A DNA stretch of 64,000 nucleotides, from assembly GCA_963682135.1 (NCBI GenBank), contig OY821645.1, positions 1 to 64,000 on the forward strand, read 5' to 3'. The position numbers and the translations under genes are program-made. Origin of the DNA: Methanothrix sp. Lineage in GTDB: Archaea; Halobacteriota; Methanosarcinia; Methanotrichales; Methanotrichaceae. The notes under the pieces are model-generated. The model did not search any database, was not told the DNA's origin, and saw only the letters and a list, made by a program, of their open reading frames with translations. Shown piece by piece: positions 22,892 to 52,949 of this stretch; the stretch's first letter is position 1; each line of letters starts with the position of its first letter.

Positions 22892-22914
22892 CTTGATGAC
22901 TCCTAGACTTTTGG

Positions 22915-23649
22915 TCAGGTGATGATTAGGTTCCTTTCATAAAGATTTAATATCTTGCGTGCCGTTTCCTCCTCTCCTTGCGGCACCGGGATCCCAATGT
23001 CGAAGGGAGTGCGGATATTGAGCCCGACAGACTGGGTGAAGGAGAATATTAGCACCGCAGGCTTTTTTCCTGTTTTCTCCTGGAATGTTGCTCCATCCAT
23101 TCTCATAAGCAAGGATTGGAACGGATAGACTGCTCCTTCATAAATAATCCCATTCTCCGCGATGTAAGCTTCTCTAGGAGACGCAAGTGCATATTTCAGC
23201 ACTATCGCCGGAGCAATCCTGGAGACAATGAAGAGGAAGACTGTGAATGCCAGAAGAAATACCCCGCTTATGAAGCCTCCTTCTCCGGCAAATATCATCA
23301 TAACCAGCGAGGCGAGAGCAAGCATTCCTCCAATAATGAGAAACATAGCACGATTTCTTTCCTGATAATCTGCATATTCGCGCCTCGCACTCTGCTCAGC
23401 TTCGTCTGCTGAGTATATCCAATGGGCCAGTGGCTGTGTGCTGTTCAGAATGCAATCCATAACCCTGGCACGGTGGAAAAATAATGCAGCGACCGCAACT
23501 GCTGAAACTGCGAGGAAGAATGATACGAATGCGATAGCATAGCCTCCAGAGAAGCCGTCAATAAAGATGAATGCACAGATGCAAACGACTGAAAAGATTG
23601 CTGCCAGAAACAGCGATCTGTAGCACCATTTCCACTGAGTATTCTGCAT
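22915..23649 (-). CDS. Four-TM membrane hypothetical protein
   Basis: Two pairs of hydrophobic helices, C-terminal IPVPQGEEE. Confidence 0.7.
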   Translation of the reverse strand: MQNTQWKWCYRSLFLAAIFSVVCICAFIFIDGFSGGYAIAFVSFFLAVSAVAVAALFFHRARVMDCILNSTQPLAHWIYSADEAEQSARREYADYQERNRAMFLIIGGMLALASLVMMIFAGEGGFISGVFLLAFTVFLFIVSRIAPAIVLKYALASPREAYIAENGIIYEGAVYPFQSLLMRMDGATFQEKTGKKPAVLIFSFTQSVGLNIRTPFDIGIPVPQGEEETARKILNLYERNLIIT

Positions 23650-23748
23650 CGTCTCTATCTTTTGTGTTATTGATCCAGATATAGCTATGTGTTTGCAGGC
23701 AAACCTTTTTTGCTCATGAGCCTCAATCGGCGTGGTGGAGGTTGATCT

Positions 23749-24051
23749 ATGAGACTGCTAATTGGCGTTATGCTTCTTCTACTGATTATTGGCTTGGCAG
23801 AATCAATACAGGAAGGTGCAACTACAGGAAAGATGATCTTCCTTGGCAGCTTATCCAAGAATGCTATGATTCAAGCCAATGTTTCAAATGAGACCAATAT
23901 CACAAATCAAACTAATATAACAAATCCAGCCAGCAAGGTAATTGCTATAAAGAATCCCATGAGCGTAATTCCTGTATCGAATAAGGTCAAGGGGTTAACT
24001 TTACCCAACTCCATACAAGCCAACTCAATTGCATACAGATTTACAACCTGA
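23749..24051 (+). CDS. Small secreted hypothetical protein with N-x-T sequons
   Basis: RBS GGAGG, signal peptide, NVSNETNITNQTNIT. Confidence 0.6.
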   Translation: MRLLIGVMLLLLIIGLAESIQEGATTGKMIFLGSLSKNAMIQANVSNETNITNQTNITNPASKVIAIKNPMSVIPVSNKVKGLTLPNSIQANSIAYRFTT

Positions 24052-24052
24052 A

Positions 24053-24210
24053 CTTTCATCCGTTACGACTGCATCGTAACTCCTGCAAACTCTGCGGAGT
24101 TAGCGAGATCACCCAGAAGGATGGGGACTTACCGATGTTTCGACTTCTCGTCGAAACTCTCGCTGACCCGCGGTTAGCGAAATCCGTCCTTCGCAATCCT
24201 ACAAGCTAAA
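24053..24210 (-). mobile_element. Orphan IS200/IS605 left-end remnant interrupted by two ~48 bp palindromic inserts
   Basis: Reverse strand has GTAGGATTGCGAAGGAC, AAGTCCCCATCCTTC(T)GGGTG and GGATGAAAG in the same order as the tnpB element left end at 62505-62560. Confidence 0.8.
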
Positions 24211-24245
24211 AGGTTTTTCTATTGGATGGCCTGCCATCTTGATTC

Positions 24246-24390
24246 GCCTTCTCGTGCGCCCCCTGTGCCCGCTCGCACGGGCACTCCTGCATGCGCGTGG
24301 GCCGCCGCTGAGGGGCCGGGCCCATGTGGCGGCGATCCGGTGAGCGAGAGCGGGAAGCAGAAAGCTTGGGCGGACCAGGCAGGACGGAGA
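24246..24390 (+). repeat. GC-rich intergenic element, copy B
   Basis: CCTGCATGCGCGTGGGCCGCCGCTGAGGGGCCGGG...GGCGGCGATCCGG...GAAAGCTTGGG. Confidence 0.8.
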
Positions 24391-24395
24391 TCTCG

Positions 24396-24584
24396 TTAAG
24401 GGATTTCGTTTGCCTCAAAGACCTCTCTGCCAAAGGTTTCGATATGGAACTGGATGGCAGATTTCACATCGGCAAGAGCTTCTTCATAGGTATCGCCCTC
24501 TCCTACTACTATCCCTTTAATTCCGACTGGGTAGGCTACATAGCCATCAAAATGATTTTCTATAATTATTTTTACCGGTTGCAT
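24396..24584 (-). CDS. HicB-like antitoxin, orphan and probably truncated
   Basis: DGYVAY...GEGDTYEEALADVKSAIQFHIE; no HicA adjacent. Confidence 0.75.
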   Translation of the reverse strand: MQPVKIIIENHFDGYVAYPVGIKGIVVGEGDTYEEALADVKSAIQFHIETFGREVFEANEIP

Positions 24585-24691
24585 CCATTAGTAAGAGGCA
24601 TTTCTCGAAAATAAATCTATGCCTTGGCTTGAGCACTGAGTTCACGGCAATAGTGGAGCCGGACTCATGGATCGCCTATCTCCGGTTAGAA

Positions 24692-24820
24692 GCCGCATGT
24701 GGATGGCCGGAAGCCCGCGAACATGAGCTTGATCGTGTCTGTGCGCTCACACGTGGGCAAGGCATGCCTGGTTAGCCGGTGCCCTCTGGCAGCTTGCCCA
24801 GATTGCCGATCTCGATCTGG
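24692..24820 (+). repeat. GC-rich intergenic element, copy C
   Basis: GTGCGCTCACACGTGGGC...GGTGCCCTCTGGCAGCTT; aligns with 33403-33530. Confidence 0.75.
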
Positions 24821-24858
24821 TCTTTAAATATCACCACCATAATGTGGAGCCCTCTCGT

Positions 24859-25212
24859 TCACCTGGCCTCTTTACAGAGCTCTTCTTGAATCTTCAGTAT
24901 CTTCTCCTTCAGATCCGGAAAATCCACTGTTGCCGCCTGCCAGACTGCTTCTAGATCTACCCCAAAATATTGATGGACTACAATATCCCTCATTCCTGCC
25001 ATGTCTCTCCAGGGAACCTCTGGGTGATCTTTTCTCAGATCAGCGGGCAGGTTTTTCACAGCTTCTCCGATTATCTCGATCCTTCGGATGATTTTATCCT
25101 GCAGGCCAACTGAATTCATCAAATCCAGCTCGGTCTTTCCCCTGGAATAACTCTCGATAAGCTCAATGCTGTCTAATATATGGCCCAGGAAAACTGTTGG
25201 ATCTTTCTTCAT
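24859..25212 (-). CDS. HepT (DUF86) HEPN RNase toxin
   Basis: [24 protein letters not shown] (R-x4-H-x-Y). Confidence 0.92.
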
Positions 25213-25496
25213 ATTATCTGGACTTGCTCGGCCAGAATTCTATCTTTGAGACGGGGGTGCAGCGACTTGTAAGTCAGAACATCTACTCGTCTGCTAATGG
25301 CATCTTCCAGCTCGTTCTTCAAATGGGCTATATCCAGAAGGCTCTTTTTCCCTTTAAATTCGACCAAAAGATCCACATCGCTCTCTTCGGTCATCTCCCC
25401 TCTCACGATTGAACCGAAAAAGGATGCCTTTTTTACATCATTTCTGTGCAAGATGCCTATTATCTTTTCACGAACGGGCTGCATCTGGTCGTTCAA
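25209..25496 (-). CDS. MNT nucleotidyltransferase antitoxin
   Basis: [19 protein letters not shown] (GS-x10-DxD); overlaps HepT start. Confidence 0.92.
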
Positions 25497-25640
25497 GCTT
25501 TTCCCCTCTCTAAAGACAATGAGGTCATGACATTTGACCTTTTCTAAGATGTAATCTGCGTTAGCCGGAATTCCAATATACTTTATCCAGTTCATCCTGA
25601 CAGGCACGCTGCCCATGCCGCCTTCCCCGGATCATTTACC

Positions 25641-25730
25641 ATTCTCGTGTGCTGCCTTCGCACGCCGGGGCCACTCGCCCCTGGATCCGCCTGCTCGCGC
25701 TCGTTCGCACGCGCGTAAGCCGGAGCCCTT
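25641..25730 (+). repeat. GC-rich intergenic element, copy D
   Basis: TTCTCGTGTGCTGCCTTCGCACGCCGGGGCC...GCACGCGCGT. Confidence 0.7.
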
Positions 25731-25905
25731 TGGAGCTGGCTACCACAGCTACTGCGGCATCCAGATAAGGAAATTCCAGATCAATGCAAGATGGCGGGCA
25801 GCCTGGCGTCAGTTGCCATCTTCCAGCTTTGGAGCGTATTTGAGGCAGATTTTTATTCTTTGACATCACACATGTAATCGTGAAAATGGGATCGGTGACC
25901 TAACA

Positions 25906-26193
25906 ATGAAGATTATCGACATCTTGAGAAAGCGTGATCGAGAAATAAAAGAGCGATTCCATGTCAAGAGAATAGGCCTATTCGGCTCCTTTGCTCGCGG
26001 GGATGAGAAAGAAACCAGCGACGTGGATATAATGGTGGAGTTTGAAAAGCCGACTTTTAACAACTTCATGAATTTAGCCTTCTTCCTCGAAGATCTCTTT
26101 GGCAGGAGGGTGGAGCTTGTCACACCTGATTCATTGAGCCCCTACATTGCTTCATACGTCGCAAGAGAGGTGGTATGGGCTGATCAAAGATGA
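25906..26193 (+). CDS. MNT nucleotidyltransferase antitoxin
   Basis: FGSFARGDEKETSDVDIMV. Confidence 0.92.
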   Translation: MKIIDILRKRDREIKERFHVKRIGLFGSFARGDEKETSDVDIMVEFEKPTFNNFMNLAFFLEDLFGRRVELVTPDSLSPYIASYVAREVVWADQR

Positions 26194-26405
26194 CTCTGTC
26201 TTTTTAAAGCACATTCTCGATGAAATTGACTTTCTCGACGAGAGCGGAATTGGAATCAAATTTGGAGACCTGATAAAAAATAAGGAAAAACAAAGAGCAT
26301 GGCTTAGAAGCCTCGAAGTAATAGGTGAGGCGACAAAGAATTTGTCAGTCGAATTTCGTGAGAAGCATCCTGAGATAGAATGGAGAAAGGTGGCGGGACT
26401 TCGAG

Positions 26406-28053
26406 CCTGACCTCCCCATTTTTTAGGCACACATATGAATGGCATCCAGAATTTGACGCTGTTTCTTAGTGATCTCGGTCGTGATTCTTTCTCCATCCGG
26501 CAAGACCATGATCTTGATTTTTTCGAGTTCAGTGAACAATCCCTCAACCGAGTATCTTTTATTCAGCTCGGCATCGATCATCATTCGCATGAGCTTCATC
26601 CTCAAGATCAGAGCAAGGAATGAAATGAATAGGTAGCCCCTTAGACTACTGTTGGTCCTCAGGTTCGCGGGCATCAAATCGATGTCGTTCTTCAGAACAT
26701 CGAATCCCTTTTCAACGATATCCTTGCTTCTATAAAGCGCAAGACATTCCACCCACGTGAACTCGCCTCGATAAAGCAAGATAAACTTTCCCATTTTATT
26801 AATAGCCTGGGAGACCGCATTTTTTCTAAGTGATACCTGAAACTTACCGTCTATTGCTTTCCATTCTATAAACTTGGCATCTCTTTTCGCAGTCGCCCTG
26901 AAAACTTCTCCAGGATTCATCCAGGGTTTCAGGTTCTTGGACTTGAGCACTTCCATCAAATCGTAGAGTCGCTTATAAAACGTATTTCTTTCCTGCTGCT
27001 CTCTTTTCTGATCGTAATATGCATATCCGTTCAGCTTGTTTTCACCAACATCGATCTCTACAGGCATCACAAACAGCGGCTCTTTTTCATAGAGTTTTAG
27101 ATGCTCTGGATCGTCAATGCTTTTGTGGATAGCAGATATCGCTTCTTTGACGTTCTTGAGATTACTCGTTGGCGGAATAATGAACGACAGATCTGCAGAT
27201 ATCATCTCCTCGATATTGTCGGTTGAAAAGAAGCCTCTATCCATGATCAGAGTATAATTTCTGACGCCCTGTGCATTCATTTTCTTGATAGTATTCTTAA
27301 GCGTAGATACATCTGCGATGCTTCCTGGGTAGAGATCATACATCAACGGTATGCCCAGATCTTTGTCCACGACTAGAGACAGATTGATTTGAGGCAGGTC
27401 GAGGCCATCTCGATTATAGCCGTATTCAAGGAGGCTGATGCTCTGAGAGTAAGACGAAAAGGAGGTTATATCGTAGACTAGCGTGCTGGCTGTGGATACT
27501 TGCTCAATGAGTTTGCGAGAGAATTCCAGATTCACAGTACCTTCACCGATACTGCTTAGCATTCGTGAAAGGCTCTGTGATGATAAGGGAAGATTCGGAT
27601 GGTCTTCAGACATGACCGTACCTTCATACCAGCTCTGGATATGGGTTAGTGCTCGGGGGTGTGTGGCATAGTTCATTGCCAGTGTCAAAATCGGCCGGAC
27701 TTCTTTACCAGGAAGAACATCAGAGAGGATCTTTTCTAGCTTAAGGTCCTCTGTGATCTTCTTGAGTGGAACGAATTCGCCATGCGATAGCACTTTCTTG
27801 GGGATTTGGTCTTTGGCGCGAACCTTCACGGGAACTCCATTGACATTCTTTCCCAAGTATTTGCTTTTCTGCCGAATTTGCTTCTTTTCCTTATCGTAAT
27901 AAGGTGTAATTTCATATATGTATTCCAGGCCATTTATCTTTTTGGTTCGAATAAAAGATTTCATGTTGTATTTAGGCACAGCATACTATTTATAGTTTTT
28001 GGTCATCGATGGCGAAAATTGATCAGATATGCCTAAATTTCGGGGAGCTTAGG
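26406..28053 (-). mobile_element. IS1634-family insertion sequence
   Basis: TTCGAG duplicated at 26400-26405 and 28054-28059; imperfect 26 bp TIRs CCTGACCTCCCCATTTTTTAGGCACA / CCTAAGCTCCCCGAAATTTAGGCATA. Confidence 0.93.
26423..27979 (-). CDS. IS1634-family DDE transposase
   Basis: YDITSFS, YGYNRD, PQINL, IMDRGF, YRSKDIVEKGF. Confidence 0.93.
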   Translation of the reverse strand: MPKYNMKSFIRTKKINGLEYIYEITPYYDKEKKQIRQKSKYLGKNVNGVPVKVRAKDQIPKKVLSHGEFVPLKKITEDLKLEKILSDVLPGKEVRPILTLAMNYATHPRALTHIQSWYEGTVMSEDHPNLPLSSQSLSRMLSSIGEGTVNLEFSRKLIEQVSTASTLVYDITSFSSYSQSISLLEYGYNRDGLDLPQINLSLVVDKDLGIPLMYDLYPGSIADVSTLKNTIKKMNAQGVRNYTLIMDRGFFSTDNIEEMISADLSFIIPPTSNLKNVKEAISAIHKSIDDPEHLKLYEKEPLFVMPVEIDVGENKLNGYAYYDQKREQQERNTFYKRLYDLMEVLKSKNLKPWMNPGEVFRATAKRDAKFIEWKAIDGKFQVSLRKNAVSQAINKMGKFILLYRGEFTWVECLALYRSKDIVEKGFDVLKNDIDLMPANLRTNSSLRGYLFISFLALILRMKLMRMMIDAELNKRYSVEGLFTELEKIKIMVLPDGERITTEITKKQRQILDAIHMCA

Positions 28054-28269
28054 TTCGAGATAAGCTCATCCATCACTATTTTGGGGTGAAGTGGGAAATC
28101 GTTTGGGATGTTGTGAAGAACGAGATTCCAGAAATCAGGCTTAAGATTGAAGCAATGCTCTACGAATTCGATTCAACTCACTAGTCTCAGATTTTCGGAT
28201 CTGCTCTTATGGCGCGCATTGTTTGTTCAAACAATAGCGCCAGCTTCGGCCTCTCCGTTTCGCCTCTAA

Positions 28270-28345
28270 TTCTCTCATGCGCGTGGGCCGCTCTGAGAGG
28301 CCGGGGCTTACCTGGGGTGGCAAGCGTTCCTGCGGGCGAGAGGGA
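28270..28345 (+). repeat. GC-rich intergenic element, copy E
   Basis: CATGCGCGTGGGCCGCTCTGAGAGGCCGGGG...GCGGGCGAGAGG. Confidence 0.75.
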
Positions 28346-28359
28346 CTTTCAACGTTTCG

Positions 28360-28707
28360 CTAGAGGTCTACATCAGCCAATACATTTTGCATCATGAGTC
28401 GAAGCTCTGGAAATTCGATGGCAGCAGTTATCCAGACAATTTCCAGGTTCACTTTGAAATAACCATGTACGAGCCGATCCCTAATTCCAGCCATATCTCG
28501 CCAGGGAATCTCCGGATATTTTTCTCTAATCGAGTCTGGGATTTGCTTCGTCGCCTCTCCCACAATCTCAATGCACTTTGTTACCGAGAGAATTGTCTTT
28601 TTATCGTTTGCGAATTCTTCGAATGTCCTATATTTTATAAATTCTTCTGCATAACCCATATGCTCGATAATATCCTCAATATAACTCCCGTAATCACGTT
28701 TTTTCAT
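28360..28707 (-). CDS. HepT (DUF86) HEPN RNase toxin
   Basis: EIVGEATK, PWRDMAGIRDRLVHGY. Confidence 0.92.
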   Translation of the reverse strand: MKKRDYGSYIEDIIEHMGYAEEFIKYRTFEEFANDKKTILSVTKCIEIVGEATKQIPDSIREKYPEIPWRDMAGIRDRLVHGYFKVNLEIVWITAAIEFPELRLMMQNVLADVDL

Positions 28708-28997
28708 ACGTAAATTACCTCTTTCAGGATATGGCCGCTTATCCTGGGTTTGAGGCCTGACTTTGTTATAAGATCTACTCTTTCACCGATCTTGTCGCTC
28801 AAGTAGTTTTGCAATCCGACATAGCGGATGAGGCCGATCGGCTCCTCAAAGTCGATAAGCAAATCCAGATCGCTGGTCTCATTCTGTTCTCCTCGCACAA
28901 ATGAGCCGAAGATGCCGATTTCCTTCACTTTGAACCTTTGCCTGATGATCGGCTTTTGGTCTATCAGAATGCTCTTTACCTCTTGAAGCGTTTTCAT
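28704..28997 (-). CDS. MNT nucleotidyltransferase antitoxin
   Basis: FGSFVRGEQNETSDLDLLI. Confidence 0.92.
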   Translation of the reverse strand: MKTLQEVKSILIDQKPIIRQRFKVKEIGIFGSFVRGEQNETSDLDLLIDFEEPIGLIRYVGLQNYLSDKIGERVDLITKSGLKPRISGHILKEVIYV

Positions 28998-29168
28998 TGT
29001 CTCCTCTGAATCTTAAACGAATTGATAGTAAATAAATATGGTGAGATGTTTACATTACATCCAGATATGTCAAAAATTCTCAGGCATGAGATTTTTCTGC
29101 AGAAAGCTCGCTGGCTGCTTTGTCATCTTAAACTCGCATCTTATTCTTTTTGTGAACCGGATTTTGAT

Positions 29169-29290
29169 GCCGTTCGCCCGAGGGCGCGCCTGCATGCGCC
29201 TGGGCCGTCGCTGGGAGGCGGGACCGGGGGCTGGGCAAGTGGTGGTTTGCGGCGGGCGGGAGGACCGGAAGAGGAAAGCCAGAGCGGTTG
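29169..29290 (+). repeat. GC-rich intergenic element, copy F
   Basis: TCGCCCGAGGGCGCGCCTGCATGCGCCTGGGCCGTCGCTG...CGGCGGGCGGGAGG...GGAAAGC. Confidence 0.8.
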
Positions 29291-29485
29291 GAATGGATGA
29301 AGACTCCCCAATGCATTTGCGGTCCGATCGTGGCGACAGGATAGCCGTCCGGCAGAATGGACAGTAGAGAAAACCAGCTTGTTGGATTAGACAGCGTGCC
29401 AAGATCAAGCAGATCTGCAGAGCCCTTAGGAGCTTAAATAGACAGGTTTTTAATCTTCGGCGACATAATAATGGCGGTGGTTTCG

Positions 29486-29674
29486 ATGCTTGTTCGAGCG
29501 ATCTATGAGAACAGCGTTCTAAGGCCATTGGAAAGGCTGGATCTAAAAGATGGCGAACTGGTCGAGATCGAAGTGAAGAAAAGTCCTGTCGATCAACTTT
29601 ATGGCATCATAAAAATCCAGAATAAACAATGGCTGGATGAGATCATTGAGAGTCCTGATTTGGAGCCAATTTAA
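29486..29674 (+). CDS. AF2212-like (DUF104) antitoxin
   Basis: VRAIYENSVLRPLERLDLKDGELVEI. Confidence 0.88.
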   Translation: MLVRAIYENSVLRPLERLDLKDGELVEIEVKKSPVDQLYGIIKIQNKQWLDEIIESPDLEPI

Positions 29675-29680
29675 TGCCCT

Positions 29681-30175
29681 ATGACATCGAAACAGGTACG
29701 AATTGTTTTTGTCGATGCGAATATCTTGCTTTATGCAGTGTCCGGCCATTGGAAGTTTGGCAATTCATCCAAGTGGCTTCTTGAGTCTATAAATGACGGC
29801 GAATATAATGGAATTACATCAGTTCTTGTGTGCAGTGAAGTATTTCATAGGTCACTAATAGCAGAAATTGTGGAAAGAGAATGCATAAGTCCAGAATCGG
29901 TTTTGAAATGCCTGAAGAAAGATCCTGGTCTGGTGAGTGAATCAACTAAGGCCTGGACTGCAATCGAGAAAATAAAGCAGATAAATAACCTGAAGATAGT
30001 AGGAATTGATGACAGCGCTTTTGATATGGCACTGAGATATTCAAAGAAATTCGGACTCTTATCTAATGACGCTCTTCATCTGGCAATTATGAAACGGGAA
30101 GGTGTGAATACAATGGCATCAAATGACAGAGATTATAAGGGTGTTAGTTGGCTGCAGATCTGGAGGCCCCAATAA
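29681..30175 (+). CDS. VapC PIN-domain toxin
   Basis: VFVDANILL, EV, NDALHLA, ASNDRDY. Confidence 0.9.
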   Translation: MTSKQVRIVFVDANILLYAVSGHWKFGNSSKWLLESINDGEYNGITSVLVCSEVFHRSLIAEIVERECISPESVLKCLKKDPGLVSESTKAWTAIEKIKQINNLKIVGIDDSAFDMALRYSKKFGLLSNDALHLAIMKREGVNTMASNDRDYKGVSWLQIWRPQ

Positions 30176-30190
30176 CTGCCGTACTTTGAC

Positions 30191-30270
30191 TCGCCTCCCT
30201 TTCCCGTGCGCTGCCTTCGGTGCGCGTGGGGTCGGCGCGCTCAGGTGGGCCTGCGCCCTCGGGCCAGATC
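30191..30270 (+). repeat. GC-rich intergenic element, copy G
   Basis: TTCCCGTGCGCTGCCTTCGGTGCGCGTGGGG...GCGCCCTCGGGC. Confidence 0.75.
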
Positions 30271-30322
30271 CTTGGTAGCTGGTCGAATCGGGCAGCATTT
30301 TGAGCTCTTTTTCCTTTAGTTC

Positions 30323-30418
30323 TCAGTCTTTCAGCTCATCCTCGATGCGCCGGAACTGCTCTAGCGCAGTCTTCTGGCTCTCCACGATCTCCAGCTCCAG
30401 AGCCACATGATTTGGCAT
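30323..30418 (-). pseudogene. Remnant resembling the C-terminus of a type I R-M HsdM
   Basis: MPNHVALELEIVESQKTALEQFRRIEDELKD*, similar to the HsdM tail LAxEIVExLxxALEQF. Confidence 0.5.
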
Positions 30419-30505
30419 GTTATTTCCAATCCACCAGTCGGACCTCATAGAGCTCTGTGAGACAAATATTTAATCCAGGAGACTGAATTGTTAAAGGGTG
30501 GCATC

Positions 30506-30694
30506 ATGCTTGTTAAGGCGGTTTATGAAAACAATATCCTAAGGCCATTAGAGAAGCTTGACCTCAAGGAGGGAGACGTGGTCGATATTGAGGTAAAAAA
30601 GGATGCAGTAGATCGATTAGGTGGCCTGGTTAAGATCTCCCAAAGAGATGTTGTCGATGAGATAATAGAAAGCCCTGAGCTGGAGCCGATCTGA
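30506..30694 (+). CDS. AF2212-like (DUF104) antitoxin, paralog of 29486
   Basis: VKAVYENNILRPLEKLDLKEGDVVDI...DEIIESPELEPI. Confidence 0.88.
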   Translation: MLVKAVYENNILRPLEKLDLKEGDVVDIEVKKDAVDRLGGLVKISQRDVVDEIIESPELEPI

Positions 30695-31191
30695 TGCAAA
30701 ATGCACTCCGACCAGGGATGATAATTTTTATTGACGCAAATATATTTCTGTATAAGATCCTGGAACATTGGAAATATGCACAACCGTGCACTGAATTCCT
30801 AAAGGATGTCAATTATGGCAAGTATTCCGGCGTTACTTCCGTATTCGTATGTAATGAAGTATTTCACAGAGTTATGTTCGCAGAGCTTTTTGAGAAGTAC
30901 AACATTGAAGCCAAGCATGCTATAAAATATCTCAAAGATAATCCAGAAGTAATAAAAGAATTGTGCGCAGCCAGGGAGGCCATTGAGAATATTTCGCAGA
31001 TCGACAACCTCATAGTAATAGGAGTCGGAAGAGATGTTTTGCATCTAGCCTTAGCGTTCTCTCAGAAGTACGGGCTTCTTTCGACAGATGCGATTCATGC
31101 TGCGACGATGAAAACGGAAGGATTGAGCATTTTGGCTTCGAACGACCGGGATTTTGAGAGGGTGGACTGGTTGAAACTCTGGAAGCCCTGA
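30694..31191 (+). CDS. VapC PIN-domain toxin, paralog of 29681
   Basis: IFIDANIFL, EVFHR, TDAIHAA, ASNDRDF. Confidence 0.9.
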   Translation: MQNALRPGMIIFIDANIFLYKILEHWKYAQPCTEFLKDVNYGKYSGVTSVFVCNEVFHRVMFAELFEKYNIEAKHAIKYLKDNPEVIKELCAAREAIENISQIDNLIVIGVGRDVLHLALAFSQKYGLLSTDAIHAATMKTEGLSILASNDRDFERVDWLKLWKP

Positions 31192-31260
31192 ATTGCAGGG
31201 TCTCCGTGATTGGACGCTCAGCTAAATCTTTGGGATTCGCATCAGCGCAGCCTTGCGGTC

Positions 31261-31375
31261 TCGCTTCGCATTCACGTGCGCTGCCTTCGCATGCGGGGCC
31301 GCTCGTGGATGGCTGGCCGCTCGCCCGAGGGCGTGCCTGCATGCACGTGGGCTGTCGCTAAGGGGCCGGGCCGGG
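31261..31375 (+). repeat. GC-rich intergenic element, copy H (most complete 5' half)
   Basis: TTCACGTGCGCTGCCTTCGCATGCGGGGCCGCTCGTGGATGGCTGGCCGCTCGCCCGAGGGCGTGCCTGCATGCACGTGGGCTGTCGCTAAGGGGCCGGG. Confidence 0.85.
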
Positions 31376-31463
31376 TTGTACTCAGCTCTCATCTTTAAGC
31401 TCACATGCTTCGTCCCTTTGCACCAGTTCTTTGGGTTAGGTTTTTCCCCGTCAAAATGGTTAT

Positions 31464-32303
31464 TCAAGTTGTGTTTTGTCCAAATAGTTCGTCCAATGTG
31501 CGGTTTTGAGATTTCCTAGGAAGTTCGGGTTGCTTGGGTGGATAATATAAACCGACTATCAGCCAAGTAGGAAATTGAGAGAATGTTCCAACATAGAAAT
31601 AAAGGTCGCTGCCCAACATAGATTTATAATATTGATCTTGCAGTTTCTCCCAAAGCAAATCCAAGTCACCGTACCACATCCCCCAGCGTCTGTAGGATTC
31701 AAACAGCTCCCAATCCTCGCATTGAATGTTATGCTCTTTTCCTTTCAGACATCCATTGCATCTGAATCTATAGCCGAATAGGTGAGGGATTTCTTCTATA
31801 TCCGGAATCTTTGTCCCAAAAAGAGATTGCTGAAATACCTTCGGATCCTGATAAATCTGCAGGTCTCCTTTTTTATAAAACTCAAAGACTTCTGCGGGCT
31901 TTATCAGACCAATCGATGTTCTATCGTCATTAAATTTGGCTTGAAGATCTTCGAGAGACGGCGCGACATGACTGAGCAGTAACCTATTGCGCTCATTCCA
32001 GTCCACTCTTCCTTTGATTTTCCTCAAGCTGAGGTTTCTGTCGACGATTTTCAAAGAGGCATCTCTGATGCGATAGCTTTCTTTGCGGCTCAGCTTTTCT
32101 TCTGCTCTTTTGCATTCTACTTCTATCCAATCATATTTTCTGAGCTTTTGCGGTCCCGAAAAAACATTGAACGGAACCGGATAGAGGCGAATCCAGTCAC
32201 CTTCTTCTGTGAGACCTATGGTGCATACGACCTGGCCATATTTTTTGCTCTTTTCGGGATATGCGGTTACGGTGACCAGTACTCGTTTCTTTTGCCAGGT
32301 CAT
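31464..32303 (-). CDS. DUF488-associated conserved protein (dual OB-like)
   Basis: VTVTAYPEKSKKYGQVVCTIG...WIRLYPVPF; CEDWE; coupled to the DUF488 gene. Confidence 0.6.
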   Translation of the reverse strand: MTWQKKRVLVTVTAYPEKSKKYGQVVCTIGLTEEGDWIRLYPVPFNVFSGPQKLRKYDWIEVECKRAEEKLSRKESYRIRDASLKIVDRNLSLRKIKGRVDWNERNRLLLSHVAPSLEDLQAKFNDDRTSIGLIKPAEVFEFYKKGDLQIYQDPKVFQQSLFGTKIPDIEEIPHLFGYRFRCNGCLKGKEHNIQCEDWELFESYRRWGMWYGDLDLLWEKLQDQYYKSMLGSDLYFYVGTFSQFPTWLIVGLYYPPKQPELPRKSQNRTLDELFGQNTT

Positions 32304-33124
32304 AGGTCGATTACCTCGACTCCGCTTTCCCTGAGTCGCTCTGCGATTACGCCTCTGTGGCAGTACTTTACATCCTTCTCAAAGCACATCAAGGATACTT
32401 TTTTATTTTGGCTGATTGATTTTATTCTCTCCAGATAGTCCATTTTAGTCTCAATTTCCTGTCTGTAGCTGGCAAAGAGAGCTTGATAGTCCTCATAAGA
32501 ATTGAGACTCTTCCGGGAGTCGCTGGGGATGCCAAGTTCAGGCATGTGGATGTAATCGATGCCCATTTTCTCCAAGTAACTTTTTAATTTATTTCGATGA
32601 AATCCAAATTTCATGCTGTAGGCATTTCTTCTCACGTCTGCGACTATGCCTATCTTATTTTTTATCAGCTCATAAAGGAATTTATCGATTGTCTTTCCCT
32701 CGTAGCCTATGGTCACAATACCGGATGAATTCCTATCGTATTCCATCTTTTTCTTGTACTGGCTGAAAATCGTGAATTCGGGATGCTCCTCATAAATATA
32801 ATCCAGCAGCATCTTGTCGTCGAGGGCGGAAAATCTCTCCGAGTTCATGCGAACTACATTTTTTATCTTGAGATCGAGCGAGGGAAGTTCTGCCGTTAAT
32901 AAATGCACAGAATCGTCATCGATAGATACAAAACCTTCTCTTTGCAAATGTGATAGATCATGATAAAGCTGAAAGGAGAATGGTCCGTACTTGTATGGTA
33001 CAAAGTAATAGAGCGGTATTCTCTTTGAGACCAGGAACATGAGCTTGACGAGGCGAAGCTTTGACATATTATTTTTATTATTATTTAAAAGATAGATAAT
33101 ACCTTTTTCTCCGCTGGTCAGCAT
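32300..33124 (-). CDS. wHTH (SocA/YwgA-like) fused DUF488 protein
   Basis: LVKLMFL...YKYGPFS N-domain; TIGYEG, ADVRR, ELGIP, LMCFEKDVKYCHR; RBS GAGGTGA. Confidence 0.85.
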   Translation of the reverse strand: MLTSGEKGIIYLLNNNKNNMSKLRLVKLMFLVSKRIPLYYFVPYKYGPFSFQLYHDLSHLQREGFVSIDDDSVHLLTAELPSLDLKIKNVVRMNSERFSALDDKMLLDYIYEEHPEFTIFSQYKKKMEYDRNSSGIVTIGYEGKTIDKFLYELIKNKIGIVADVRRNAYSMKFGFHRNKLKSYLEKMGIDYIHMPELGIPSDSRKSLNSYEDYQALFASYRQEIETKMDYLERIKSISQNKKVSLMCFEKDVKYCHRGVIAERLRESGVEVIDL

Positions 33125-33219
33125 ATCATGTCACCTCGCAGTGATATAATCAAACCATTAAATATAAGTCTTTTTGCCGTGGCCGGGGCGAAAGTGATGG
33201 CATGCCTCTCTTGCGTCTC

Positions 33220-33530
33220 GGACGCGGGGCCGCTCGTGGACGGCTGGCCGCCCGCTTGAGGGCGCGCCCGTGCGCGTGGTCCACGGCTGATGGGCAGGGG
33301 CAGGCGGCGGTGATCCGGCGGGCGGGAGGGCCTGACGTGGAAAGCTTGGGTGGATCGGGATGAGTGTGGGGCAGGTTCTGGGATCGCTGATCTCAGTTGG
33401 TGGCGGCTCGTGGACGGCTGGACGCCCGCCTGCACGCGCTCCCACCAGCGCCCGTGCGCCCACACGTGGGCTGACTCGCTCAGTTGACTGGTGCCCTCGG
33501 GCTGCTTATCTGGATTGGAGATCTTAATTT
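33220..33530 (+). repeat. GC-rich intergenic element, two tandem copies (33220-33360, 33403-33530)
   Basis: Both contain GCTCGTGGACGGCTGG; first ends GGAAAGCTTGGG like copy B, second ends GGTGCCCTCGGGCTGCTT like copy C. Confidence 0.8.
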
Positions 33531-33784
33531 GGTAGTTGCAGATCTCCGCCAAAATGTTGGTGCCCTTTCGATTGCCTGGCCTCTTTACTTAACTCTGATT
33601 GGATAAATTTCTCTGCTCTGTCGATGAGAAGCTCACTAAATAGGGATCGAGCTTTAGTGGTACCCTTACAAGCGTAATAATGCTACATCCCATCAGCCTA
33701 ATTAGGAACATACCATAAAAGTCTTATTATAATTTGATAAAAAAGTTGGAAAGTAGAGTAAAATTAAAAGTTGATATGCTGGCA

Positions 33785-36007
33785 CTAACTTTTGCATACC
33801 TCTTCCAAAAATATTTTAATTTCATTATCGATTTCACCTTCTGCCATCAAAGCAGCTAATCTTTCTCCGTCTTTGACTTTGTTAAATCTTGTGCCATATT
33901 TTCTACATACATTGTCTATCAAGATATCTCCAGGAACGATTGATAATCTCATTGTCTCCCAATTACTATTCACAAAATTCTTTTGTGCATCATAAATTTC
34001 GTCAATTCTTTTATCTTTTTCCTCTAATATTTTGATCATTCTTTGGATATCAGCAGAGACTCTATCCTTCATCATCGGTTCGTCCATGTTTTCAAAATCA
34101 AAATCTTTCGTCGGATGGATGGGGGAGAATATTCGCAAAAATATACGCTTGTTAATTGCAAATTGCTTCAATTGATTTGCACTCTCAATTATGTCTTCTT
34201 TAATTTTATCTTCATTAGGCAATTCTTCTGATTTGCCTGAAGTATCTTGTTTTAATTTTATAAACTCCCTGAGTACACGCGGATGAATTAGATAATTTTC
34301 TAATTCCCGTTTGCTCAATACTTTCAGAATAGCTCTTCCATTTAGCATTTTTCGCATTTTATCAAAATAATCATCTTCTCTTTCATCCCTATCAAGCAAA
34401 AAACAAATTCCAACTCTGCGTTTTGTTAAAAATGATAAAGTATCTTCTGCGGCATAATAAGCAAAATTTCTCACGCCACTCATGCGAATAAATCCTACAT
34501 TATATTGACCCAAGTTGAATTCCAATTTTGACGCCAATTCCCGAAGAACGTTTTCATCAGAAGGGCCTTCGACAAAAACAAGCTTATCATACATGAATAG
34601 GGAACTCAGTCTTATACCTAGCTCGTTCGGAATCTTAGCTTCTGCTTCTTCGAGATTTAGGAGTTCAACTGATGTTGCGGTTGTTTTAGATACTAAATAT
34701 ATATTTTTCATTTCTGCAGTATCTAGAAAGTTCGTCGAATGAGTTGTGATAAATATCTGACAGCTTTCACTTTTTCGCTTTAGATATTGCATCATACTCG
34801 TTTCAAGCGAGGGATGCAAATGCACCTCTGGTTCCTCAACTAGAAGGACATCCGGATGTAGAAATTCTACATCTAGTATTATCCTTAAAGCCTCTCTGAT
34901 ACCAGAACCGTTTGCTTGAACCAAAAAATCACCAACATCTAGTTCCGCAGGCACTTCCGATCTGCGTGATGAGACACTACCTTGAAATGCGTCAATGCTT
35001 ACACCAAGCAATGTCAAAACAGTCTCCTGAATATTGCGAAGAACAATCGATCCACCTCTGCGTACTTTTAGATCTAATAGCCTAGCTGCTTCATCCTCAC
35101 CTATCGGTTTGCGTCTTTCTGTAAGATTAAGTACTTTGGTTCTTGATATACTCAACAATAGATTGGAGATGTATTTTGGTATAGACGCCTCTTCGCCTGC
35201 GAACGATGTTATCTTATTTCTTAACTCTTCTTTTTGAATTGCTGTAAACTCTTCACCAAGGAATGATGAAATATTTTCTAAACTCTTGCTAAACTCTTCA
35301 TATGTCTTAGAACTTCGAACAATTGAATAAATCTCGTCTCTGATTTTTTCACTTGATCCAGAAACCAAATCTCTGGTATAATATTTAAAATAGTTTTGAT
35401 CTTCAGATAAGCGACGCCAATCACCAGGTTCTATTCGTTTAGTGAGATTCTCTATGCTCTTGATATCTTCGTCAAGTTGGCGTGATCTAGATAAGTTGTC
35501 TCTAAGTTCGATCGAAGCGTTATAATTAATGCTAAGTAAAATATTTTTTTTATCTAAAGTTACATTTTCTTTGGATTTTATTAATGCTAATTCGCTAACA
35601 AAGCTAAACGGAGAACTCGAGGGATTGATATTAATGGTTGCAGATAGTATCGATATGTCTATTCCCTCAACTGCGGTTTTCATTTGAGGAGTTTCTTTTA
35701 TAATATTTTGTTTCAATTGATCGATTTCATAGACTGTGAGCACGAAATATATCGTAACTTCTATCGGTAATTTTCTTACATCTCTCGGATTAGAAGTCTT
35801 ATAAAAATCAATTTCTCTGCCAATTGGTGGATTTAAATTTACAAAACTGCCTTCATCAATACAGGAGAAAAAGGCATTGATTGCTGAAAGAATATTAGAT
35901 TTCCCCGAATTGTTTTTCCCTATCAATACATTGAATCCATCGCAATTGTTTAATGCTAATGTTTCAATGCTTCGATAATTTTTTATTACTATTGTATCTA
36001 GTTTCAT
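33785..36007 (-). CDS. OLD-family ABC ATPase-TOPRIM nuclease
   Basis: GKNNSGKS, LLVEEPEVHLHP, ITTHS, FVEGPSDE, LLDRD; very AT-rich. Confidence 0.9.
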   Translation of the reverse strand: MKLDTIVIKNYRSIETLALNNCDGFNVLIGKNNSGKSNILSAINAFFSCIDEGSFVNLNPPIGREIDFYKTSNPRDVRKLPIEVTIYFVLTVYEIDQLKQNIIKETPQMKTAVEGIDISILSATININPSSSPFSFVSELALIKSKENVTLDKKNILLSINYNASIELRDNLSRSRQLDEDIKSIENLTKRIEPGDWRRLSEDQNYFKYYTRDLVSGSSEKIRDEIYSIVRSSKTYEEFSKSLENISSFLGEEFTAIQKEELRNKITSFAGEEASIPKYISNLLLSISRTKVLNLTERRKPIGEDEAARLLDLKVRRGGSIVLRNIQETVLTLLGVSIDAFQGSVSSRRSEVPAELDVGDFLVQANGSGIREALRIILDVEFLHPDVLLVEEPEVHLHPSLETSMMQYLKRKSESCQIFITTHSTNFLDTAEMKNIYLVSKTTATSVELLNLEEAEAKIPNELGIRLSSLFMYDKLVFVEGPSDENVLRELASKLEFNLGQYNVGFIRMSGVRNFAYYAAEDTLSFLTKRRVGICFLLDRDEREDDYFDKMRKMLNGRAILKVLSKRELENYLIHPRVLREFIKLKQDTSGKSEELPNEDKIKEDIIESANQLKQFAINKRIFLRIFSPIHPTKDFDFENMDEPMMKDRVSADIQRMIKILEEKDKRIDEIYDAQKNFVNSNWETMRLSIVPGDILIDNVCRKYGTRFNKVKDGERLAALMAEGEIDNEIKIFLEEVCKS

Positions 36008-36019
36008 TTATTACATCTG

Positions 36020-36730
36020 GAGTGCGGAGGGTCACGAATACCCCAACCTTCAGGTTGGGGATGAAGTGAACCCTCGCCGTTTTTTGCGTTAATTCATATC
36101 GATCAACCGTTGCTTCTTTTAAAATGAAATCGTATTTGGCACTTTAGCCACAGGTGGTGCCACCCACCTATGGCTAGGATGTGATAAGCGTTGGAATTGC
36201 GCAGTTTTAGCCATGGCTATGGTCAAATTACCTACCACATCGTACTGGTGCCAAAGTATCGATACAAGATATTCTATGATAAGCGAGTTAAAAAGGATTG
36301 CGAGCTAATTCTCATCAATATTTGCATGGAGCAAGGCTATAAAATTCATGCAATGGAAATTGTAGACGATCATGTTCACTTGTTTCTGGAATTCCACCCG
36401 AGCTCTTCTCTATCAAGAGTCGTTCAATTTTTGAAAGGAGGTAGTTCATATAGAATGTTCAAGCTTCATCCCGAATTGAAAAAAAGATATTGGGGCGGAA
36501 GCTTGTGGTCAAGTGGCAAATTCTTTCGATCCGTCGGAAATGTGACTGCTGACACAATAAAGCACTATATTAAGGAATCTCAGGGGAAAACAAAAGCAGA
36601 ATCGCAATTTTGCAGATCAAAGGAATCTGGGCAAAGAAGGCTCGATGATTTCTGATCTCCAGCTAACTGGGCGTGCGTGCGGCCCGAAGCATACCCCATC
36701 CCTTTAGGGTGGGGTGGCCGCACGCAGTTT
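36020..36730 (+). mobile_element. IS200-type element (tnpA only); ends approximate
   Basis: Hairpins CCCCAACCT-TC-AGGTTGGGG (36041-36060) and ACCCCATCCC-TTTA-GGGTGGGGT enclosed by perfect TGCGTGCGGCC/GGCCGCACGCA (36674-36726). Confidence 0.85.
36191..36655 (+). CDS. tnpA: IS200/IS605 HUH (Y1) transposase
   Basis: YHIVLVPKYR, DHVHL, LKGGSS, LWSSGKF, HYI. Confidence 0.95.
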   Translation: MELRSFSHGYGQITYHIVLVPKYRYKIFYDKRVKKDCELILINICMEQGYKIHAMEIVDDHVHLFLEFHPSSSLSRVVQFLKGGSSYRMFKLHPELKKRYWGGSLWSSGKFFRSVGNVTADTIKHYIKESQGKTKAESQFCRSKESGQRRLDDF

Positions 36731-36777
36731 GATTCTCACTCCAATTAAAATATGTTATTCGGAAAAAAATGGCAAAA

Positions 36778-37788
36778 TTATCCCATCTTCTCCCTCACCG
36801 GCGCCAGTATCTCGTTCATGCTCTCTGCACATGCCTTCTTGAGATCCATGGGGTGCAGCGCCCCGCTTACGAAGTCCGCCTCCAGCGTCTCGTAATTCTG
36901 GTAAGAAACATCCCCGCCGAACTTGGCCGGCCTCTTGATGGTCATCCCTTCCTCAATCCTGGGGAAGACATGATACTTGCATATGGCCAGCACTGCATTG
37001 TTCTCCACAATCTTGGCCGGACAAAATGCGCTCTTGATCTTCTTCTCGACGTCGGCAGCCGGCTCGTCCACTGCAATGTTGTTGCCCTTGGAGGAGGACA
37101 TCTTCTCGCCGTTCAGACCGGGGATGAGAGGCGTGTGCATGCACACCGGCGCGGGCAGGCCCAGCCGGGGCAGCTCCTCACGGGCCAGCATGTGAATCTT
37201 TCTCTGGTCAATGCCGCCTACTGCCAGGTCGATCTTGAGGTCGGCAATGTCGATGGCCTGCATGAGCGGGTAAATCATCTGGGAGACCATGGGGTTCTCG
37301 GCATTTCTGCTGACCTCGTCCATGCTTCTCCTGGCCCGGTTGAGAGTGGTATTCCTGGCCATCTGCAAGATCTTGAGCATATAATCCGGCTTGAGCTGAT
37401 AGTCGGTTCCGTAAACAAACTCCGTCCTCTCCGGGTCCAGGCCCAGAGCCATGAAGCAGTCCCGGTTGTAGTCGGCAATCTTTCGCACCTCTTCCAGGGT
37501 GCCCTTCTCGTTGAGGAAGGCATGCAGATCGGCTAAGAGGACGACGACGTCAAAGCCCACCTTCTGCAGGTCCAGGAGCTTGTTGGCCGTGAGCATGTGG
37601 CCCAGATGCACCTTGCCGCTCGTCTCGTAGCCCACATAAGCGCGCGGCCTGCGGCTCTGCTCCAAAAGGCCCTTGAGTTCGTCTACCGTCACTATCTCTT
37701 CTGTATTTCTCATCACCAGCTCAAGCTTATCCAATGCACATTCACCACCCTCACAGAGGAATGGGGATGTATAATGCTTTTGGTTCAT
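36778..37788 (-). CDS. tyrS: Tyrosine--tRNA ligase
   Basis: AYVGYETSGKVHLGH, YPLMQAID, GGIDQRKIH, KMSSS. Confidence 0.96.
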   Translation of the reverse strand: MNQKHYTSPFLCEGGECALDKLELVMRNTEEIVTVDELKGLLEQSRRPRAYVGYETSGKVHLGHMLTANKLLDLQKVGFDVVVLLADLHAFLNEKGTLEEVRKIADYNRDCFMALGLDPERTEFVYGTDYQLKPDYMLKILQMARNTTLNRARRSMDEVSRNAENPMVSQMIYPLMQAIDIADLKIDLAVGGIDQRKIHMLAREELPRLGLPAPVCMHTPLIPGLNGEKMSSSKGNNIAVDEPAADVEKKIKSAFCPAKIVENNAVLAICKYHVFPRIEEGMTIKRPAKFGGDVSYQNYETLEADFVSGALHPMDLKKACAESMNEILAPVREKMG

Positions 37789-47032: not shown

Positions 47033-47074
47033 TTGCCATTATTCAAATTGAATCCAAGGGAGTGAGGTGATATA

Positions 47075-50925: not shown

Positions 50926-51030
50926 TGAAATTGGATTACTTTCGGGGTGCTAGCATCAGATCTATTAAGATGAAATTAACCTAAGAATAATACCGTCTGT
51001 AAACGCACGATCTGGTGGGGATAAATAAAA

Positions 51031-52795: not shown

Positions 52796-52797
52796 TC

Positions 52798-52940: not shown

Positions 52941-52949
52941 GCCGCTCTG

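Follow-up and report, generated by a model that had tools for sequence, protein, structure and literature searches.

The first 64 kb of the Methanothrix sp. genome (OY821645.1, positions 1–64,000; this whole stretch is called the window) contain a series of small toxin-antitoxin (TA) and defence gene cassettes, separated by copies of a GC-rich, non-coding element of approximately 170 nucleotides (nt). The locus is a hypervariable TA/defence island, found at a fixed site downstream of a tyrosyl/tryptophanyl-tRNA synthetase-class gene (TyrRS) in a subset of Methanothrix. Comparison with related genomes and with metagenomes showed that cassettes have been reassorted, lost and gained, among species as well as among strains that are nearly identical, and that the junctions fall within the element. 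The element was shown in this way to be the junction at which cassettes exchange, in fixed orientation, at one chromosomal hotspot of one genus that has no recombinase gene in its vicinity.

Copies of the junction element

The genome consists of a single contig of 3,043,341 bases (50.1% GC), of which the window forms the beginning. The starting signal was a set of direct-repeat families that connected intergenic peaks of GC content (0.55–0.71 in 200-nt windows) between AT-richer genes. Nine copies from the window were aligned, and the resulting profile was used for a whole-genome nhmmer search; the nine training copies were the sole significant matches, all on the + strand (filters off; the next match had E = 5.3). 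They lie within approximately 9.3 kb (24.2–33.5 kb) and fill eight consecutive spacers. E values below are from nhmmer, and joints are positions at which metagenome contigs depart from the order of the window.

24241..24371, + strand: copy B; head partly lost, core, long tail (E = 5.2e-18)
24689..24798, + strand: copy B2; head divergent, followed by the core and by the tail type associated with MNT-HepT cassette 1 (E = 1.2e-12)
25635..25745, + strand: copy C (E = 1.1e-14)
28213..28350, + strand: copy D (E = 3e-20); joints at 28277 and 28299
29142..29284, + strand: copy E (E = 7.2e-16); joint at 29202
30194..30273, + strand: copy F; head fused straight to core and tail; joint at 30228
31263..31379, + strand: copy G; most complete head (E = 9.3e-23); joints at 31277, 31297, 31325 and 31337
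33201..33351, + strand: copy H1 (E = 5.6e-20); joints at 33216, 33228 and 33254
33385..33510, + strand: copy H2 (E = 6.1e-14); direct-repeat family D5, followed by a HepT 3' scrap at 33558–33604

Copy F scored E = 0.03 with the window profile and 4.2e-22 with a profile of the genus. The copies had a GC content of 68.6%, against 43.2% in the remainder of 24240–33515, and were degenerate, sharing 60–87% identity in ungapped blocks. A more sensitive profile of 38 copies from several genomes detected a tenth copy outside the window (79798–79945, - strand, E = 2e-14), situated between a thermosome gene and a solitary HicB-like gene (locus L038, 7799–7946). The total for the genome was therefore 10 copies in 3.04 Mb, nine of them at one locus.

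A first-pass annotation, made from the window alone, had described nine + strand copies irrespective of cassette orientation, occupying eight consecutive spacers, sharing sequence blocks and far richer in GC than the cassettes. The whole-genome profile recovered exactly those nine, the coordinates and Pfam assignments agreed with the cassette order it gave, the shared blocks were real in both repeat families and alignment, and the difference in base composition was as large as claimed. It divided the copies into two tail types; across the genus more than two exist.

Cassette order and content in related genomes

The cassettes between the copies were delimited as follows; related genomes and their loci are denoted by G and L numbers, respectively.

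24396..24584, - strand: HicB-like orphan antitoxin cassette without HicA (62-aa open reading frame, ORF)
24859..25616, - strand: MNT-HepT cassette 1 (HM1); HepT 24859–25212, MNT 25209–25616
25906..28184, + strand: MNT-HepT cassette 2 (HM2), identified by Pfam; HepT split by an insertion sequence (IS) with a DDE transposase
28360..28997, - strand: MNT-HepT cassette 3 (HM3), identified by Pfam; same cassette in L021, L023, L026, L031 and L032
29471..30175, + strand: AF2212-like antitoxin and PIN toxin cassette 1 (PIN1), identified by Pfam; 84% identity to L021 17275–18008
30276..30400, - strand: scrap of the 3' end of hsdM, attached to the tail of copy F
30488..31191, + strand: AF2212-like antitoxin and PIN toxin cassette 2 (PIN2), identified by Pfam; 82% identity to L021 18851–19604
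31464..33124, - strand: two-gene DUF488 cassette; gene B 31464–32303, gene A 32300–33124 (Pfam DUF488, 1.9e-27)

Gene orientation was mixed across these cassettes, most of which, like those elsewhere, measured 0.8–2 kb. HM1 matched HepT-like (3.3e-28) and NTP_transf_2/Polbeta domains in Pfam, and was also present in L025 (94%), L024 (88%) and L021 (83%). The IS in HM2 extends from approximately 26406 to 28053, with its transposase at 26423–27979 on the - strand, and the HepT/MNT pair was placed at 25906–26410 by Pfam; HM2 is intact and free of the IS in L025, at 98%/95% identity. The hsdM scrap proposed by the first-pass annotation was substantiated by blastn, since 30191–30400 matched the 3' terminus of the complete hsdM gene of L025. 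The HicB cassette is present as described, but the name lacks Pfam support: the 62-aa ORF had no Pfam match, and the label rests on its 78–86% DNA identity to ORFs located beside HicA in L025, L024 and L026.

Seven of the window cassettes recurred in relatives at 67–98% identity (blastn of window positions 20–40 kb against the relatives' loci), and in every match the orientation of the cassette relative to the element was unchanged. Their order was not. Reading outward from TyrRS, the window has DUF488, PIN2, (hsdM scrap), PIN1, HM3, HM2 with its IS, HM1 and HicB, while G017 has DUF488, ParE, HM1, HM3, PBECR2, HicB, PIN1, HicB' and PIN2. Such differences cannot be explained by loss alone, which cannot permute cassettes, nor by inversion, which would flip them.

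The flanks of all 38 copies were compared over 300 nt upstream and 300 nt downstream. There were 79 pairs of copies with a homologous flank of at least 100 nt, and only three pairs shared both flanks, one of these trivially (the overlapping H1/H2); hence, 76 of 78 non-trivial pairs had one flank in common and not the other. Tail identity was 0.668 where the downstream cassette was common to both copies and 0.561 where it was not, while head identity was only weakly linked to the upstream cassette (0.735 versus 0.690); the p-values for these comparisons overstate their significance, pairs of copies being non-independent. The tail travels with the downstream cassette, therefore, and the head weakly with the upstream one, which makes tail-genes-head the effective unit. 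Copy B2, for instance, was 94% identical from its tail onward to the sequence upstream of the same cassette (HM1) in L025. Cassettes that were 98–99% identical between genomes were found beside much more divergent elements and other neighbours.

Breakpoints in metagenomes and between copies

Parts of the window were found at near-identity in 21 public sequencing runs, four of which are probably the source or its close kin. Contigs from one run (X5) and from three metagenomes of different studies (X6, wetland; X9, landfill; X11, wastewater) were compared across 22500–37500 at an identity of at least 92%; spans without contig cover in X6, X9 and X11 (e.g., the OLD-family gene beyond the array, which only X5 covered among the four runs) were not counted as absent unless bridged. 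Two joints restored sites free of insertion sequences: 26399->28054, with six shared bases, at the DDE element in HM2 (X6, X9), and 36078->36675 at an IS200-type element near TyrRS (X9, X11).

Six further joints linked cassettes that are not adjacent in the window, and in all six both ends lay within copies of the element. The head of D was joined to the head of G (28277->31277; X9, X11), and the core of E to the core of F (29202->30228; X6), which skipped exactly PIN1. Copy B was reached from G in one metagenome (31325->24278; X6) and from H1 in another (33254->24278; X9). The DUF488 cassette was placed beside HM2 by the joint 33216->25689, with a 115-nt replacement copy (X9; shorter side 255 nt), and G led back to D in X11 (31337->28299). 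This last joint is the reciprocal of the D-to-G deletion seen in the same run; the pair could reflect a circle or a tandem duplication, or equally well two strains with different orders. In addition, one X11 contig passed from 33195 straight to the 3' end of TyrRS (36779), without H1, H2, the OLD gene or the IS200-type element. Cassette order and content therefore differed between strains as well as between genomes, with breakpoints in the element, so that the test proposed by the first-pass annotation had a positive outcome.

Breakpoints were also located by comparing copies that share a flank at 90–99% identity, these nine pairs being the most recent. In four pairs homology ended at, or immediately ahead of, the 5' edge of the head; in the others it ended inside the head in one, at or just before the core in two, between tail blocks in one and at the 3' end of the tail in one. 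When copy C was compared with L025, for example, the flank was 99% identical and the head 96%, before identity collapsed at 25716 in the core. Metagenome joints that were in register fell at consensus columns ~38, 83 and 105. The boundaries of the cassettes were no more uniform: the hsdM 3' scrap behind one tail type ended at six points in six loci, with the full gene kept in two genomes, which indicates that cassette interiors erode independently of the element. Judged from these alignments, the breakpoints and eroded interiors appear unlike the single crossover point and exact limits of attC recombination.

Structure of the element

Alignment of 38 copies resolved a well conserved head of approximately 50 nt, a middle of variable length made up of short CRTGCGC-like motifs, a conserved core ending CACGTGGGC, and a tail. 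Conservation was centred on discrete boxes, with a spacer of variable length between head and core. The 7-nt CRTGCGC-like motif occurred in the head, in the middle and before the core, and was tandemly iterated in some copies (e.g., L023 8886–9083). In copy D (28270–28285) the head motif is joined directly to the core motif; this was interpreted as an out-of-register event because the joint is a 7-nt motif found in both head and core. The ends of the element were ill-defined, and many copies were truncated or internally deleted (D, F, L025_4878).

The first-pass annotation had called the element palindromic, which three analyses failed to support. Single-strand DNA folds of nine copies gave z-scores of -0.80 to +1.15 relative to dinucleotide shuffles, none folding better than these; the RNAalifold consensus of 24 copies from seven genomes was -0.34 kcal/mol, with none of eight pairs compensatory; and short inverted repeats (7-nt arms, spacers of 2–12 nt) averaged 5.7 per copy where shuffles had 4.2, a single one being conserved, in 18 of 38 copies, although a very degenerate site could escape such a scan. 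Neither GTT nor AAC occurred in the 191-column genus consensus. A search of 23000–37000 against Rfam (E ≤ 1) returned one sub-threshold snoRNA match, at 17.5 bits against a gathering threshold of 45.

Two coding interpretations were rejected. The element is not a coding remnant, given that head-to-core lengths modulo 3 were distributed 14/12/9 and no frame was preferentially open. A supposed relic of an MNT gene start upstream of the head was withdrawn: the 135-aa MNT ORF of HM1 (25209–25616) probably has an over-extended start, because its Pfam domain begins at residue 50 and other MNT genes here are ~97 aa long, and its first ~20 codons consist of stop-poor sequence common to many copies just upstream of the head.

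Tracts of alternating purines and pyrimidines made up a fraction of 0.115 of the element; dinucleotide shuffles gave 0.051, and windows of the genome matched for GC content gave 0.026. None of 200 shuffle sets reached this value; the runs were only 9–12 nt long and the copies share descent. These Z-DNA-like tracts may bear on the recombinogenicity of the element, as one inherited property of one family. It is speculation that high GC and alternating tracts are a by-product of frequent recombination, or else promote it.

Distribution of the arrays

A BLAST search with copy G against 40 relatives produced matches in 10 of the 24 that belong to the same genus and in none of the 16 others; the matches were clustered and co-oriented, approximately 0.8–2.8 kb apart. 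With a consensus-like natural copy as the query, 30 of 59 genus genomes were positive, or 20 of 30 among those of high quality. Where several copies lay close together on one contig they were always on one strand. There were eight copies on G068:C6, seven on G017:C11 and four each on G066:C6, G063:C64, G069:C35, G051:C31, G012:C1 and G015:C45. When 185,579 species, each represented by one genome, were searched for a 31-nt degenerate pattern of the head, only nine stretches matched, all within four records of metagenome-assembled genomes (three Methanothrix and one uncultured Methanosarcinales). The same pattern had no match among viral contigs and identified nine short metagenome contigs, again with co-oriented copies. 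The first-pass annotation had supposed that the element builds methanogen defence islands in general; this does not hold, as the element is found only in about half of one genus.

Within that range, the association with TA and defence cassettes was consistent. All 10 copies in the genome of the window, and every array examined in relatives, were located at the junctions of such cassettes, and matches to the model were tied to these junctions rather than scattered through the genomes. Cassettes of relatives and metagenomes included the DUF488 pair, ParE, HicA/HicB, MNT-HepT, AF2212-PIN, PBECR2, DUF2283 and Schlafen/AlbA_2, as well as Shedu SduA_C, HsdM/HsdS, KAP NTPase and several ORFs belonging to no family.

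The arrays adjoined TyrRS and a MobA-like gene in the window and on the contigs of four relatives (L021, L023, L028, L029). In G005 and G022, which are nearly complete and free of the element, ordinary genes lie beside TyrRS and no copy occurs within 15 kb. The left flank was considered as a second conserved anchor and rejected, since pieces of it map to scattered contigs in relatives. Some arrays were positioned away from TyrRS. That of G012 (L026, G012:C1 ~316–319 kb) has TPR genes on both sides, together with a Shedu-like gene and a PAS histidine kinase, and a second array contig of G016 (L024, G016:C166) lies beside an S-adenosylhomocysteine hydrolase gene; one genome may hold more than one array locus.

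Search for an associated recombinase

A recombinase gene co-occurring with the arrays, which the first-pass annotation had suggested looking for, was not found among the ORFs scanned around the arrays of relatives (118) and of metagenomes (30 of 44, the other 14 being short or overlapping copies of the element). The genome of the window has an intact match to PF00589 at 912 kb and two with stops, at 1634 kb and 2807 kb, so that its sole intact tyrosine recombinase gene is 0.9 Mb from the array, and has no match to PF00239. No PF00589 match was present on the array contigs of five relatives (G017, G068, G066, G012, G069). The Y1 transposase gene beside the array (36191–36655) is an ordinary IS gene, being one of seven scattered PF01797 matches in this genome; it is absent from the arrays of relatives and from the X9 and X11 contigs. 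For this reason, a reading based on repetitive extragenic palindromic (REP) sequences and their associated tyrosine transposases (RAYTs), which this gene had prompted, was discarded. Tandem integrative elements with a tRNA-linked attachment (att) site were likewise rejected: the window has a single tRNA, at 13786, there are no integrases, and no copy occurs beside TyrRS in G005 or G022.

The DUF488 pair is the gene pair most closely linked to the arrays. It was present in 13 of 30 element-positive genomes and one of 29 element-negative genomes, always within a few kb of a copy of the element, and both genes matched the PADLOC candidate system PDC-M19 (A, 4.8e-79; B, 2.1e-58). It was considered as the recombinase of the array, a reading that was abandoned on two grounds: several genomes that carry arrays and are at least 98% complete (G015, G063, G061, G074) lack the pair, and the pair matches a candidate defence system. 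The same evidence identifies it as cargo. The first 145 residues of the DUF488 protein had no Pfam match, and its partner (31464–32303) was left unassigned by Pfam. Archaeal ParB-CTPase-fold fusions with DUF488-HTH are described as binding CTP (10.1101/2025.10.10.680097, in part).

Mechanism of cassette exchange

The explanation preferred here, tentatively and at a little under even confidence, is that the copies may act as a recombination substrate, with exchange guided by the similarity between them. Crossing-over between two direct copies would delete the intervening cassettes or release them as a circle. A circle, or incoming DNA, could cross over with any copy and so insert cassettes in the same orientation, while two flanking copies combined with DNA uptake would allow one cassette to replace another. 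Points of exchange could be spread over the whole element, with the 5' edge of the head and the tail as limits, and would at times be out of register, at short internal motifs; no dedicated integrase would be needed. The several breakpoint positions, together with imprecise cassette erosion, favour exchange of this kind over a dedicated recombinase, and the out-of-register joints fit it as well. Identical stretches between copies reached 115 nt in G016 and 42 nt in G017. The first-pass annotation had offered a recombination site, a REP-like substrate or a homology anchor; the last of these fits best, while the REP-like substrate was not supported, as the element is not dispersed and the Y1 gene is an ordinary IS gene missing from relatives' arrays and from two metagenome forms.

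Several observations weigh against similarity-guided exchange. The longest perfect match between copies in the window's own genome was 17 nt (median 9), and none of 35 pairs shared 25 nt or more. This maximum is marginal for strand exchange, yet near-identical strains differ in arrangement; with at most 17 identical bases, the present array gives the impression of being old and hardly able to recombine through classical strand exchange. The combination of conserved boxes and a variable spacer resembles recognition sites as much as generic homology, and a purely passive model does not need strict co-orientation or confinement to a single locus. There was no general homogenisation within genomes of the kind expected from frequent gene conversion, head identity being 0.702 within the same genome and 0.690 between different genomes (p = 0.11); concerted evolution within genomes was dropped as an explanation, as this comparison of copy identity did not reveal it overall. 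The metagenome joints also require caution, because several of their sides are 21–37 nt long, other species may contribute at 92% identity, and where two similar copies are joined the aligner has some influence on the exact point.

Some of the same observations suit the principal alternative, which is possible but considerably less probable: that a dedicated site- or sequence-specific recombinase, or another DNA-processing enzyme, is encoded elsewhere and acts on the element in trans. The array might in that case be an integron-like platform, where the enzyme would recognise the head and core boxes, would excise and reinsert tail-genes-head units in fixed orientation and would in this way build and reshuffle the TA/defence array beside TyrRS, although this is unlikely. 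The site itself would be double-stranded and approximately 170 nt long, and the platform would rely neither on IntI or attC folding nor on Xer sites or HUH transposases, a proposition given the same low credence. Conserved boxes around a variable spacer would be expected of such a site, and the strict co-orientation, the fixed orientation of cassettes relative to the element and the permutation of order without inversion are all consistent with it. A maximum of 17 identical bases is too little for efficient homologous exchange, and X11 contains both a deletion junction (28277->31277) and its reciprocal (31337->28299). Furthermore, an integrase acting in trans can mobilise the cassettes of integron arrays without IntI (CALINs; PMC9668308, in part). 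However, no tyrosine or serine recombinase was found on or near any array examined, and the DUF488/PDC-M19 pair, for all its linkage, is missing from array genomes that are at least 98% complete. Breakpoints at five or more positions in the element, imprecise cassette edges and the lack of a conserved inverted-repeat core, fold or covariation also argue against a dedicated enzyme.

It is improbable that the element is primarily cis-acting (for example, as an insulator, as a regulatory site or binding site for a protein, or as the gene of a small RNA) and that recombination at it is incidental to its being repeated. This would account for a non-coding sequence that is conserved across species about as well as neighbouring genes, for its enrichment in alternating tracts (0.115 versus 0.051) and for its single orientation throughout. 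However, copies occur alike at gene starts, at gene ends and between convergent or divergent genes; they show no conserved secondary structure or Rfam match; and many are truncated or internally deleted (D, F, L025_4878). Nor would cassettes of unrelated families be expected to share an operator.

Still less probable is a passive relic, in which an ancestral element and gene were tandemly duplicated and then subject to replacement, loss and vertical descent, with no continuing role for the element. The copies in this genome are indeed old and degenerate, gene scraps lie beside them, and the chromosomal position is conserved. Against this, differential loss cannot permute the order of cassettes (window versus G017), 76 of 78 non-trivial pairs share one flank only, cassettes of 98–99% identity are found next to divergent elements with different neighbours, and strains at 92–99% identity differ in their adjacencies. 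Finally, a canonical integron remnant (CALIN) with divergent attC sites is very improbable indeed: the layout of the cassette array is alike, and TA and restriction/defence functions are typical of integron cassettes, archaeal ones included (PMC9668308, in part), but there is no IntI, no hairpin potential or covariation and no GTT/AAC in the consensus, while gene orientation is mixed and breakpoints are dispersed.

Comparison with known systems

In integrons, attC sites are imperfect inverted repeats that form single-strand hairpins, with RYYYAAC/GTTRRRY cores, and structure is conserved over sequence. In layout, the Methanothrix array works most like a sedentary chromosomal integron or CALIN, and it fails every defining feature that was tested (IntI, folded attC, cores and single crossover). 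The resemblances are extensive: fixed chromosomal cassettes of approximately 1 kb lie between similar, co-oriented repeats of 60–170 nt; cargo is rich in TA and defence genes, with some cassettes reversed and carrying their own promoters; order varies among relatives; and the adjacent integrase can be missing (PMC9668308, in part). Archaeal integrons are described there as canonical IntI/attC systems with TA and restriction cassettes, this lineage not appearing in the main text (PMC9668308, in part). By contrast, the Methanothrix array lacks IntI and attI, RYYYAAC/GTTRRRY cores and any fold or covariation in its element, which conserves sequence where attC conserves structure; integron crossover occurs at a single G/TT with exact limits, whereas here the breakpoints are spread and cassette limits imprecise. 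The first-pass conclusions that this is not a canonical integron, and that the element marks sites of cassette exchange, were supported; mixed gene orientation is a further difference from integrons.

The recombinase-associated acquired interbacterial defence clusters (rAID-1) of Bacteroidales are similar in having repetitive intergenic sequences of skewed GC content and a content that varies between genomes, but possess a conserved 5' XerD-family recombinase and co-directional genes, neither of which is found in the Methanothrix array, and carry orphan immunity genes instead of TA and anti-phage cargo (10.1101/471110, in part). The dif modules of Acinetobacter are also small, often encode TA systems in either orientation, are bounded by repeated sites, include no recombinase of their own and are shuffled between replicons; unlike the co-oriented, chromosomal element of approximately 170 nt, their sites (pdif) are 28-bp Xer sites that alternate in orientation on plasmids (PMC13141974, in part). 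No conserved inverted repeat resembling the 11-6-11 arrangement was detected in the 38 copies (by the scan with 7-nt arms, which gave one weak repeat in 18 of 38).

Minimal mobile elements of Neisseria consist of alternative cassettes at one locus, exchanged through flanking homology without a recombinase or transposase. The Methanothrix arrays are alike in their alternative gene content at one locus and in having no associated recombinase or transposase. They differ in that minimal mobile elements have conserved genes as anchors and one cassette per site, whereas here the anchor is a non-coding repeat between every cassette, which permits serial accumulation and internal reshuffling. Lastly, REP sequences and bacterial interspersed mosaic elements (BIMEs) with their RAYTs, and miniature inverted-repeat transposable elements (MITEs), are comparable as short, GC-rich, non-coding intergenic repeats, and an IS200-family Y1 gene does lie beside the array; however, the Methanothrix element is not dispersed (nine of 10 copies at one locus) and not palindromic, and the Y1 gene belongs to a seven-copy IS.

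Flanking genes and other features

Three features lie between the array and the remainder of the window, with a MobA-like gene beyond TyrRS.

33785..36007, - strand: OLD-family ATPase/TOPRIM nuclease gene (Pfam AAA_15 and OLD-like_TOPRIM; PADLOC GajA/AriA/Old models)
36078..36675, + strand: IS200-type IS with a Y1 transposase gene at 36191–36655 (Pfam Y1_Tnp); incidental
36778..37788, - strand: TyrRS/TrpRS-class synthetase gene (Pfam tRNA-synt_1b), the conserved anchor in the chromosome; 3' end faces the array

The OLD gene, which has a GC content of approximately 30–35%, is solitary, no GajB-like partner having been called, and looks like a recent insertion beside the array. No copy of the element occurs in the spacer between OLD and TyrRS in the window. 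At the left edge of the array, 24053–24213 contains an unrelated dispersed repeat of ~160 nt, which may be a MITE-like element; nine full or partial copies occur in the genome (e.g., near 182.6 kb, 2.515 Mb and 3.030 Mb), it is also present in G005 and G024, and it had no Rfam match.

Other observations were made elsewhere in the sequence. A second copy of the DDE-transposase IS found in the array is located 0.9 kb beyond the tenth copy of the element (L038 8859–10415). A second defence-like cluster extends over 43574–57180 on the + strand, comprising genes for an SNF2/ResIII helicase with a NOV_C domain, a DUF1156 protein, an EVE-domain protein and a DUF499 protein; the junction element does not occur in it. 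At 62634–63821, close to where the window ends, there is a TnpB-type gene (OrfB_IS605, with a Cas12f1-like TNB domain).

Implications

The junction element is new, and the array is organised as a new variation on cassette arrays and hotspots that are already known; the literature searched contained no account of arrays of this kind in Methanothrix. To our knowledge, the canonical integron is the only cassette-capture system described in archaea, and the way in which defence and TA genes gather into islands is a standing question, most of all for archaea. The arrays are a source of candidate defence genes, among them the PDC-M19/DUF488 pairs, PBECR2, DUF2283, Schlafen/AlbA_2 and cassettes of no known family. 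If similarity between copies suffices for exchange, no integrase is needed for an integron-like architecture to form and function; an enzyme, if one takes part, would represent a new recombination system, and its host is a methanogen that matters greatly for methane production.

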